DNA from: a virus
Virus genome (UHGV): UHGV-0107614
DNA length: 16,935 nt
Direction: 5' to 3' (one strand)
Positions 12,001 to 15,000 of this stretch are shown here, in pieces. Within the stretch, counting starts at the first letter, position 1. The number at the start of each line of letters is the position of its first letter. Position numbers: made by a program.

Positions 12001-15000
12001 GTATTCAAAAGGCCAGGGGGGAACAGGCCAGAGATGATAGTGCGGCCTCTGCATCTGAGTTTATCCGTGGTCTGAAACAGAATTACGCGCAGTAATTCAC
12101 CATTCCCGTTAATACTATTTCCTGATACCCGGTCATTGTGCCGGGTTTTTTTATGGAGTCTGTATGGCTTATTCCGATGAACAGCGCCCTGAAGCGCAAT
12201 TTGGCAACCAGAACCGCAACAGCCTGAACATTCAGCAGCCGGGCGAGACTGACCGCTATGATGCGTTTTTCTCCGATCCCAATCGCTGGAAGGACAACAG
12301 CACGTCGTTCAGCCTGGGCGATGTATTGCCAACTATGGGGAAAGGTGTCGCCCAGTCCGTCCGGGGGGCAGGGGAAATGGCCCGTGGACTCGGTGATGCG
12401 ATGATTCAGAGCCCGGTAAAAACAGGGGCGCGTATTTTAAATGAGTTCAGCCGTATGGGGCTGCCGGGAGTCGCAACTGTTCAGGATATTTTTGTCGGTG
12501 GCAGCAAGGGGGCGGATGAGGTCATCGACACTCTGCCTGATGGAAAAAATGCGGTTACTGATATTGTCGGTAAAGGTCTGAAGGTCACAGGCAAGGCAGT
12601 CAGTGGCGGCGCTAAAGCCTCGGATGAATGGCTGACTGGCAAGATGTCGCCGGGGGCGCAGCGGGCGCTGAATACACCGATGACTGAAGGATATGATGAT
12701 TCTGCGGTCTGGGTGGCGAAGGGCGTAAACCTGATTGGTGCCCTTGTACCTGATATGGTTGCAGGCGGTGTGACTAAAAAGCTGGGTGAAGTCACTCTGC
12801 GAAAAGTGCTGACCGCCGGGCTGGAGAAAAAATACATTGCGGCAGGGATGCAGCCGGAAAGAGCTACCGCACTGGCAGCAGAAGCTGTCGATAAAAAAAT
12901 GCCGGATTTATTCCAGGCAGGCCTGATCACCCATTCCTCAGCCAGCGCACAGGGGCAGAGTGCAATGGCAGCAGCAGACTCTGTTCTTAACGCGGATTAC
13001 TCTGAGCTGGCGAAGTCCCCGAAATTTCAGCAGACGTTTTTGTCAATTGATGCAGATCCGCAGCACGCACAGCTTACTGATCGCCAGAAAATGGATCTGG
13101 CAAAAGAGCGTGTTGCCGATGAGGTGCGCGCGCAGCTGGCAACAGATCCTGAATTGCTGGCTGTGAATGCCATGGCGGCAAAACTGGGCGATGCTCAGTT
13201 GCTTAATCTGGCGATGCGGGGCACGGCGAAGACCGTTAAAAGCGGCATTGTCAGAAATGCCACGGAACAGGGGACGATTAATGCGGCGCAGGGTGGCTAT
13301 TCACGCTATCAGGAAAACACGGCATTGCGTGAGACCGCCGGAATGGATGTGTCACCGGGGGAGGGCGTGGCTGACGCAACGATCGAAGGTGCAGCCCTTG
13401 GTGCTGCGATGGGGGCACCATTCGGTGCGGTTGCCGGATATCGTGGCAGACGTCATGCCGCAGAAGAAACCGCCATGCGTGAGGCTGAAAGCGTTCCTCA
13501 GGACGAATCGGCTCCGCAACCCGAACCGGTTGATCCGGTGGCACAGCATCGTGAATCCATGCAGGGGATGAATCGCGAGCAGCTTCTGGAACAGTATGCT
13601 GATGCGGATATGGCACATGAGGAAGACACGTCTGCCGTTCATCGCCGGGAAGCCGCCAGCCAGCTGTTGAATGAACTGGATGAACAGGCGAAGCGACAGG
13701 CGGTAATGGATGAGCTGAAGGCGAAGCCGCGCCCTGAACTGCTTGAGGAATACCGAAAACTCAGCCTGAAGGAAGGGCGTACTGATACTGAAGAGCAGCA
13801 GTTACAGGCTATCCGTGATGTGCTTCGCCCTCAGCAGGAGGCCAGACCGGAGGCACAGCCACAGCCGGAAAATGCGGATGATGGCGACGGGAGTATTTAC
13901 CCGACGGTGCGGTTCCGCGATCCGGATGAAGTTCGTATTGAAATTAACGGGAGTGGTGCGTCCAGACCAGCAGAACGCATTGAAAAGGTGCGTCCGGACA
14001 ACCGTTATTTCACGGATGAAAAAAGTGCTCTGGGGAGCGACGTTTTCCGCAATGCCAGCGCCACCGGCCTGAAACCGTCCGTAGTGAAGAAAGGCGAGAA
14101 TCAGTATGCCGTTGAAATGGATAATCCTGCGTTCTCTGAAGATGTGGCAACGGAGACCATTAACACTCTGGCTGACGGAGAGCGTATTACTGATGCTGAT
14201 CCGATGGAACAGCCCGCGTTCATGCGTGACCCGCGATTCCGTGGTTTTACGGGGGATGATACAGAAGTGCAGGCCCGTCTTGCCCGTGGCAACGCGCCGA
14301 CGGCGGAAGAACTGGTGCATTCCCAGATGGCTGAAGGTGATGCCGGTCCGACAGCACAGGAGTTAACTGAGCGTCCGCGTCTGCCCGCCCCCGGCGATAT
14401 TCATCCCGGACAGGGATATCCGTTACCGGGAGAGGTGGCGGACGTGGTGGTCGTTTTACCACAACCGGTGAGGTTAAGGGCCAGAGTTTCCAGAAAGGAC
14501 GTGCTCCGGCACCGGAAAACGCCGCTGGTCGCCAGGGGGAAATACTGGAGGGCGAAACAGTTCGTCGTGGTCTGCCGTCACCGGATGAGCAGAACGCCAC
14601 AGCGCTGGTACGTGAAGGTCTACCGGCTCCGGACATTACACACAATGTCCGTATGCCTCAGCCTGATCAGCTTCCCCGAACTGTTCGTAACTCATTGCCT
14701 GAGCTCGCACAGCAGGCAGAAGTACGTCGACAGGCCGGAGGAAATCGTGACATCCCGCAGCCTGAGACAATCGCACCTGAATCTGAAACAACTGTCTCTA
14801 CTGACAGGGAAGCTACTGTGCGCGGAGGTGAAGTCAGGGGCAAAAAAATTGAAGACTTTGGCGAGGAAATTAAAGGGGCAGCCAAACACCGTTATGCACA
14901 GCTTGCTGAAACACTGGGTAAAACGCTGGAAGACAGGGATTATGCCACGCAGCCGCTGAGCAAACTGTTCCCGAAACCGGACTACGCAAAACTGGCGAGC

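Follow-up and report, generated by a model that had tools for sequence, protein, structure and literature searches.

A 25-bp out-of-frame deletion divides the giant late gene of a phi24B-like phage contig between two reading frames

The giant gene and its two reading frames

The window analysed here, the whole 16,935-nucleotide stretch listed as UHGV virus genome UHGV-0107614, is a complete ENA metagenome contig (ERZ1309371 NODE_726_length_16935_cov_3.079680) whose SPAdes-style name gives a k-mer coverage of 3.08. It spans the tail and late region of a 933W/phi24B-like short-tailed lambdoid phage (Sepvirinae), and our subject is the giant gene at its downstream end, which in relatives encodes an LPD5/LPD1/MuF_C/LPD38 "polyvalent" protein of roughly 2,800 amino acids (aa) and which here is distributed over two reading frames. 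The order of genes, that is, tail-fibre genes, a YadA-anchor protein, a tail-tip fibre, Lom, Hok, small genes, a 421-aa gene and finally the giant gene, is syntenic with P13374, phi24B and the E. coli prophages, that of UCPROB-001 included, and in all of them the giant gene is the last of the late operon. As in the Sepvirinae, the giant gene follows Lom, Hok and the gp73-gp77 homologues. The nearest complete genome is that of E. coli UCPROB-001, with 97.5% identity across 94% of the window. All features described below lie on the plus strand.

The open reading frame (ORF) that begins at ATG 12164, which is the PGAP start in UCPROB-001, is free of stops until the TGA at 14957-14959. Its first 759 codons, 12164..14440, are in the original frame of the gene and share 99% protein identity with aa 1-759 of an intact 2793-aa orthologue, while the remainder, 14441..14959, is an out-of-frame tail of 172 nonsense codons with 12.8% Arg that ends in this TGA. 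The -1 frame has its last stop in the TGA at 14368..14370 and is thereafter open for 855 codons to the end of the window, a length with a chance probability of about 1.5e-18, which agrees with the initial annotation in that this frame was said to be closed there and sensible for more than 800 codons beyond. By tblastn and Pfam, it is in this frame that the giant gene continues for 832 codons, 14440..16935, before running off the window. In a tblastn search with the intact P13374 protein, aa 1-772 align in the first frame, ending at 14440, and aa 781-1612 align at 97% in the second, over 14440 to 16935; against UCPROB-001 the second part corresponds to aa 768-1599 at about 100%. Codon periodicity on either side, suggested earlier as a check, gives the same answer, the GC signature of the codon positions (GC1 about 0.7, GC2 about 0.45) lying in codon-start phase 2 before the junction and in phase 1 after it. 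The switch from sense to nonsense noted previously at about 14455 is real, but its point is 14440/14441, 14 nt before the run of four T residues (T4) to which it had been attributed. The frames share 587 nt (14371-14957), and the deposited gene calls, one of 931 aa and one of >636 aa from 15028, are fragments of one gene.

The -1-frame part, 14440-16935, carries LPD5 at 15289-15738 (Pfam, 6.4e-46) and LPD1 at 16219-16458 (Pfam, 5.1e-24), together with the motifs HEWFH at 15988-16002 and HEIIH at 16789-16803. In a full intact orthologue Pfam also finds MuF_C at aa 1750-1839 and LPD38 at aa 2476-2681, and the window stops at about aa 1599, before both; within the N-terminal part, 12164-14440, Pfam finds no domain. 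The same giant gene family includes vb_24B_48 of phi24B (gp47 in a 2026 cryo-electron microscopy (cryo-EM) preprint), gp78 of P13374, and WP_243053135 and WP_062863647 of E. coli, and intact orthologues are single ORFs of 2,793-2,807 aa. The domain architecture is that of the "polyvalent proteins" as set out by Iyer et al. (2017; PMC5512222). The giant protein of phi24B is abundant in purified virions by proteomics and missing from the cryo-EM map (10.64898/2026.04.10.717836), and the role proposed for it in the same preprint (10.64898/2026.04.10.717836) is that of an ejection protein packaged within the capsid.

The window gene resembles the Sepvirinae giant gene in being the last of the late operon, after the 421-aa gene, and in containing LPD5 and LPD1, and it resembles the E. 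coli prophage copies in its 99-100% protein identity on either side of the junction. It differs in that it is without 25 nt and so lies in two frames, with no uninterrupted ORF of about 2,800 codons. Judged from its sequence, the window copy is a disrupted allele and not an intact member of the family.

A 25-bp deletion at the junction

At the junction, 14439..14441, 25 nt of sequence, CGTACGCCGGATGAGAATCAGGCCG, are absent between 14440 and 14441, and in blastn comparisons with P13374, phi24B, UCPROB-001 and E. coli 2015C-3121 this gap in the window is the sole difference at that point. The missing segment encodes RTPDENQA plus one base, and a CG microhomology at the breakpoints, within GGCG/GCCG, allows three equivalent placements of the deletion. 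The ancestral peptide, encoded by 35 of 35 usable comparison loci, is GEVARTPDENQAGRGGRFTTT and not GEVADVVVVFTTT. Between 13500 and 16500, the deletion apart, the window and the intact gene of E. coli 2015C-3121 have 100% identity. Among 5,426 complete E. coli genomes, a search that we regard as unbiased and in which a record sharing the deletion would require >95% identity, 425 records matched and none exceeded 95%. The best matches (301/326 = 92.3%) are identical save for the 25-nt gap, and 60 of 60 records sampled evenly down the ranking of 425 span the query length plus 25.

Alignment to intact orthologues, the check that had been recommended, thus returns one gene that is disrupted, with a 25-bp gap as the lesion. 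Orthologues with two separate genes at this point, the arrangement that the initial annotation held would speak against it, were not found: 32 of the 35 comparison loci are uninterrupted over the compared sequence, and none of the 35 has a gene boundary at the window junction. Of the three interrupted loci, phi191 changes frame six times, and the remaining two, prophages in draft genomes, have 1-nt indels at other places in the gene. The phi191 record (L003, NC_028660), in which the giant gene is broken into seven frames or more and a number of adjacent genes are split, appears to be full of single-base indel errors and should not be cited in favour of two genes. The other two are IMG/VR prophages, one (L013) with two 1-nt indels about 400 nt apart (5614-6013) that bracket a misread segment and the other (L038) with a single indel (5443).

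It is almost certain that a 25-bp out-of-frame deletion at 14440/14441 breaks the giant gene, with no change in the T4 run and no recoding signal, and this claim is common to the two accounts of its origin weighed below, a deletion carried by the sampled DNA and a deletion introduced in vitro. The intact single-ORF orthologues bear out the earlier view that one giant gene has been disrupted, in the -1 direction and without programming.

The T4 run and other homopolymers

The mechanism preferred by the initial annotation was a single-base error or mutation in the T4 run at 14454..14457. Adding one T there does reopen the frame, although the fused peptide that results, GEVADVVVVFTTTGEVKGQSF, is not the ancestral GEVARTPDENQAGRGGRFTTTGEVKGQSF. 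The run itself is unaltered, its context GTCGTTTTACC being the same in the window and the comparison loci; its length is the ancestral one in 35 of the 36 comparison loci matched at the junction, the 36th being the error-ridden phi191. Moreover, the window already matches the orthologue frame from 14440, 14 nt upstream of the run, and every relative differs from it by the 25-nt gap instead. A slip of one base at T4 has next to no probability left and was rejected. More generally, a homopolymer error would alter a run by one base, whereas the gaps in this operon are of 25 nt and, at a second site described below, 13 nt, in non-homopolymer sequence. The homopolymer hot spot of the region is not T4 but the A7 run at 14842..14848, which encodes GKK in the true frame and forms an A AAA AAA heptamer in the frame of the nonsense tail. 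Proteins from two unrelated assemblies, P0041 (Logan) and P0042 (a 4.5-Mb NCBI contig), change frame exactly at this A7 run.

Recoding or gene fission

Another possibility is that the arrangement is functional, either through programmed -1 frameshifting or transcriptional slippage or as a split into two expressed genes. There is some likeness to the programmed -1 frameshifting of lambda G/GT, in that a late-operon gene has two overlapping frames offset in the -1 direction, and the 587-nt overlap (14371-14957) together with the A AAA AAA at 14842-14848 in the upstream frame would allow low-level -1 slippage to re-enter the true frame. Unlike in lambda G/GT, the junction lacks a slippery site, the arrangement is not conserved, and the orthologues, which are single ORFs, have no need of a shift. 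No X XXY YYZ heptamer occurs in the upstream frame between 14300 and 14841, the C GTT TTA at T4 not being of this form, and transcriptional slippage would need a run much longer than four T residues. Heptamers of this form occur only about 400 nt into the nonsense tail (A AAA AAA at 14842 and A AAG GGG at 14872), and slippage at A7 would leave 134 missense residues in the product. The next in-frame ATGs (14653 and 15028) are without an upstream Shine-Dalgarno-like sequence. None of the relatives has a two-frame arrangement, 35 of 35 loci being single-frame at the site and the 60 sampled E. coli records all retaining the 25 nt, and an arrangement private to one contig provides no evidence of selection. 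A programmed -1 frameshift was rejected on the absence of a junction heptamer and of a conserved two-frame arrangement, and programmed recoding, already considered the less likely option in the initial annotation, can be excluded for practical purposes. A functional arrangement of any kind is highly improbable.

Polyvalent proteins are described as modular (PMC5512222), and a real and tolerated split could be imagined in which the 759-aa N-terminal module is made separately and the C-terminal product arises by A7 slippage or internal initiation. If true, this would catch a polyvalent ejection protein in the course of splitting into modules, but we consider it more improbable still. The lesion is non-programmed, and the choice lies between an ordinary broken gene and a technical error.

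A second deletion in the same operon

The operon contains another broken gene, a truncated homologue of P13374 gp74 at 9465..9998, with 177 aa in place of 218. Its lesion is a 13-bp deletion of TATCGCAGGCAGA at 9817-9819, flanked by the imperfect direct repeats GGCAGGTA and GGCAGATA, and it adjoins a run of five G residues (G5) without lying inside it. The best E. coli matches at this site (261/274) are otherwise identical save for the gap. The two lesions shift the frame in the same direction, each being of length 12n+1 (25 = 24+1, 13 = 12+1); the earlier observation of a shared direction stands, and the placing of this second lesion inside a homopolymer does not, as it is a 13-bp deletion beside G5 and no homopolymer slip. 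The window genes other than these two have lengths equal to those of their orthologues. The 13-bp junction reads CAG/GTAAGTATGT, a coincidental resemblance to a eukaryotic 5' splice site.

Deletion in the sampled DNA or technical artefact

Technical error and recent decay, the two explanations offered by the initial annotation for the paired lesions, are both still live. We propose that the deletion is real in the sampled DNA and reflects a very recent slipped-strand or microhomology event in a decaying prophage, and we put the probability of this reading at about one half. Under this model, 25 bp would have been lost very recently by slipped-strand or microhomology-mediated deletion at the GGCG/GCCG breakpoints in a prophage that has begun to decay, and a like deletion of 13 bp, between GGCAGGTA and GGCAGATA, would have truncated the gp74 homologue. 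A de Bruijn assembler outputs only junctions that are present in the reads, and deletions of 13-25 bp are rare among short-read (Illumina) and SPAdes errors. Short direct repeats stand at both breakpoints, as is typical of slipped-strand deletion, a known route of decay in prophage genes, two lesions in one element fit prophage decay, and about 3 of the 35 other copies of the giant gene are frame-disrupted as well.

The main competitor, to which we assign somewhat less than even odds, is a technical artefact, in which the gene is intact in the organism and the deletions of 25 bp and 13 bp were introduced in vitro. They would stem from chimeric reads or from a polymerase that switched templates at short repeats while the DNA was being amplified or the library prepared, the roughly 3x coverage letting a single read set the sequence. 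As template switching by a polymerase in vitro gives the same repeat signature, the breakpoint repeats do not discriminate between the two. The SPAdes gap closer requires an overlap of roughly 10 nt with at most 2 mismatches, and no 10-nt overlap with at most 2 mismatches exists across either deletion. An assembler overlap-join was accordingly rejected, comparison of S[i] with S[i+25] and S[i+13] giving only 3/4-nt and 7/8-nt repeats, and two independent artefacts of a rare type within 17 kb would require an unusually chimera-prone library.

Several observations weigh against a deletion present in the sampled DNA and in favour of an artefact. The coverage of 3.08 stated in the contig name is low, and by Poisson arithmetic several coverage gaps would be expected in 17 kb at such a depth, so that parts of the contig probably derive from a single read. 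No collection searched contains either deletion outside this contig. The 25-bp junction, as exact and degenerate patterns, gave no match in genome_contigs (GTDB species genomes), viral_contigs (IMG/VR) or metagenome_contigs (JGI metagenomes), and the 13-bp junction pattern gave none in viral_contigs or metagenome_contigs; the intact 41-mer, used as a positive control, recovered 32 viral contigs. At the protein level, a set of about 15 billion proteins has the broken products of 931 aa and 177 aa on a single contig each, with the intact alleles on hundreds, and no other protein in a collection of 5.8 billion clusters, queried with the junction plus nonsense tail, carries the junction GEVADVVVV. 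A lineage sharing the deletion was rejected, the junction patterns being absent from the contig collections searched.

The kinds of private change in the window also count on the side of an artefact. Sequence between 9000 and 16600 contains at most one private substitution as against two private deletions of at least 13 bp, whereas in natural mutation spectra mid-size deletions amount to a small percentage of substitutions; over 3 kb the flanks of the lesion match intact genes at 100% identity, and the natural disruptions of the giant gene seen elsewhere, in the L013 and L038 copies, are 1-nt indels. In addition, four private substitutions (16676, 16691, 16697 and 16896) are crowded into the last 260 nt. 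Three of these, the non-synonymous changes E>G, Y>C and R>M, are packed into 22 nt and affect positions that do not vary elsewhere, with none in the preceding 3 kb; none of the four occurs in 26 aligned loci, and the best E. coli record is 99.2% identical over 486 nt, with none identical. This cluster suggests single-read errors that reached the consensus at a low-coverage contig end, and private changes made up mostly of mid-size deletions and an end cluster of substitutions are what unpolished low-coverage sequence would be expected to contain.

Comparison with slipped-strand pseudogenes of prophages is similarly divided. The out-of-frame deletions, the 2-8-nt (imperfect) repeats, the presence of two lesions in one prophage and the lack of any compensating change are all as in such pseudogenes, and Mira, Ochman and Moran are said to have described, in 2001, a deletional bias of bacterial pseudogenes. 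Unlike them, the window lesions have almost no accompanying substitutions and are seen in no other genome. An out-of-frame lesion and a further lesion in the same element are present, as expected of a pseudogene, and the lesion was not found in independent genomes. The ratio of nonsynonymous to synonymous substitution rates (dN/dS) across the lesion is of no help, the 4 differences in the 2.5 kb downstream being too few for use. Hairpin-mediated deletion was considered and rejected; DNA folding of the intact region is weak, with z = -1.7 at the 25-bp site and +1.5 at the 13-bp site, neither significant.

The search with the junction plus tail returned only N-terminal fragments and off-frame ORFs that had been mis-called on intact copies. 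On intact copies the counterpart of the off-frame ORF at 14441-14959 has its ATG within the 25-nt segment (MRIRPDVVVVLPQ...), and on other contigs it has been called as a "protein" of 170-177 aa (P0031-P0033). Such overlapping calls are almost certainly spurious.

Consequences for the gene product and for annotation

If the deletion is carried by the phage, translation from 12164 would yield 759 native residues followed by 172 nonsense residues, with the stop at 14957. The C-terminal part of roughly 2,000 residues, which includes LPD5, LPD1, MuF_C and LPD38, would be left with no start codon or ribosome binding site of its own and would essentially not be made. A defective prophage would result, with virions that are without the ejection protein.

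The contig should be annotated with one disrupted giant gene and not as two genes of 931 and >636 aa, with the low coverage flagged. The case also illustrates that a one-base repair at the nearest homopolymer can be wrong, as only alignment to intact orthologues showed that both lesions are multi-base deletions. The gene family, the virion location of its product and the kinds of lesion are all known already, and the finding has no bearing on an open biological question.

Other features of the window

A Hok/Gef-family toxin gene at 8775-8915 is intact, encodes a 46-aa protein identical to WP_000078907 of UCPROB-001, and was overlooked by the contig's own gene calls. An Rfam scan of the window found no family above threshold, Sok and Hok RNA included. 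Among the tail-fibre genes are those for a DUF4376 protein (452-1030) and for a 426-aa YadA-anchor-domain protein (1712-2992). The tail-fibre part is the most divergent from relatives, at 83-94% identity, which is typical of mosaic host-range cassettes.

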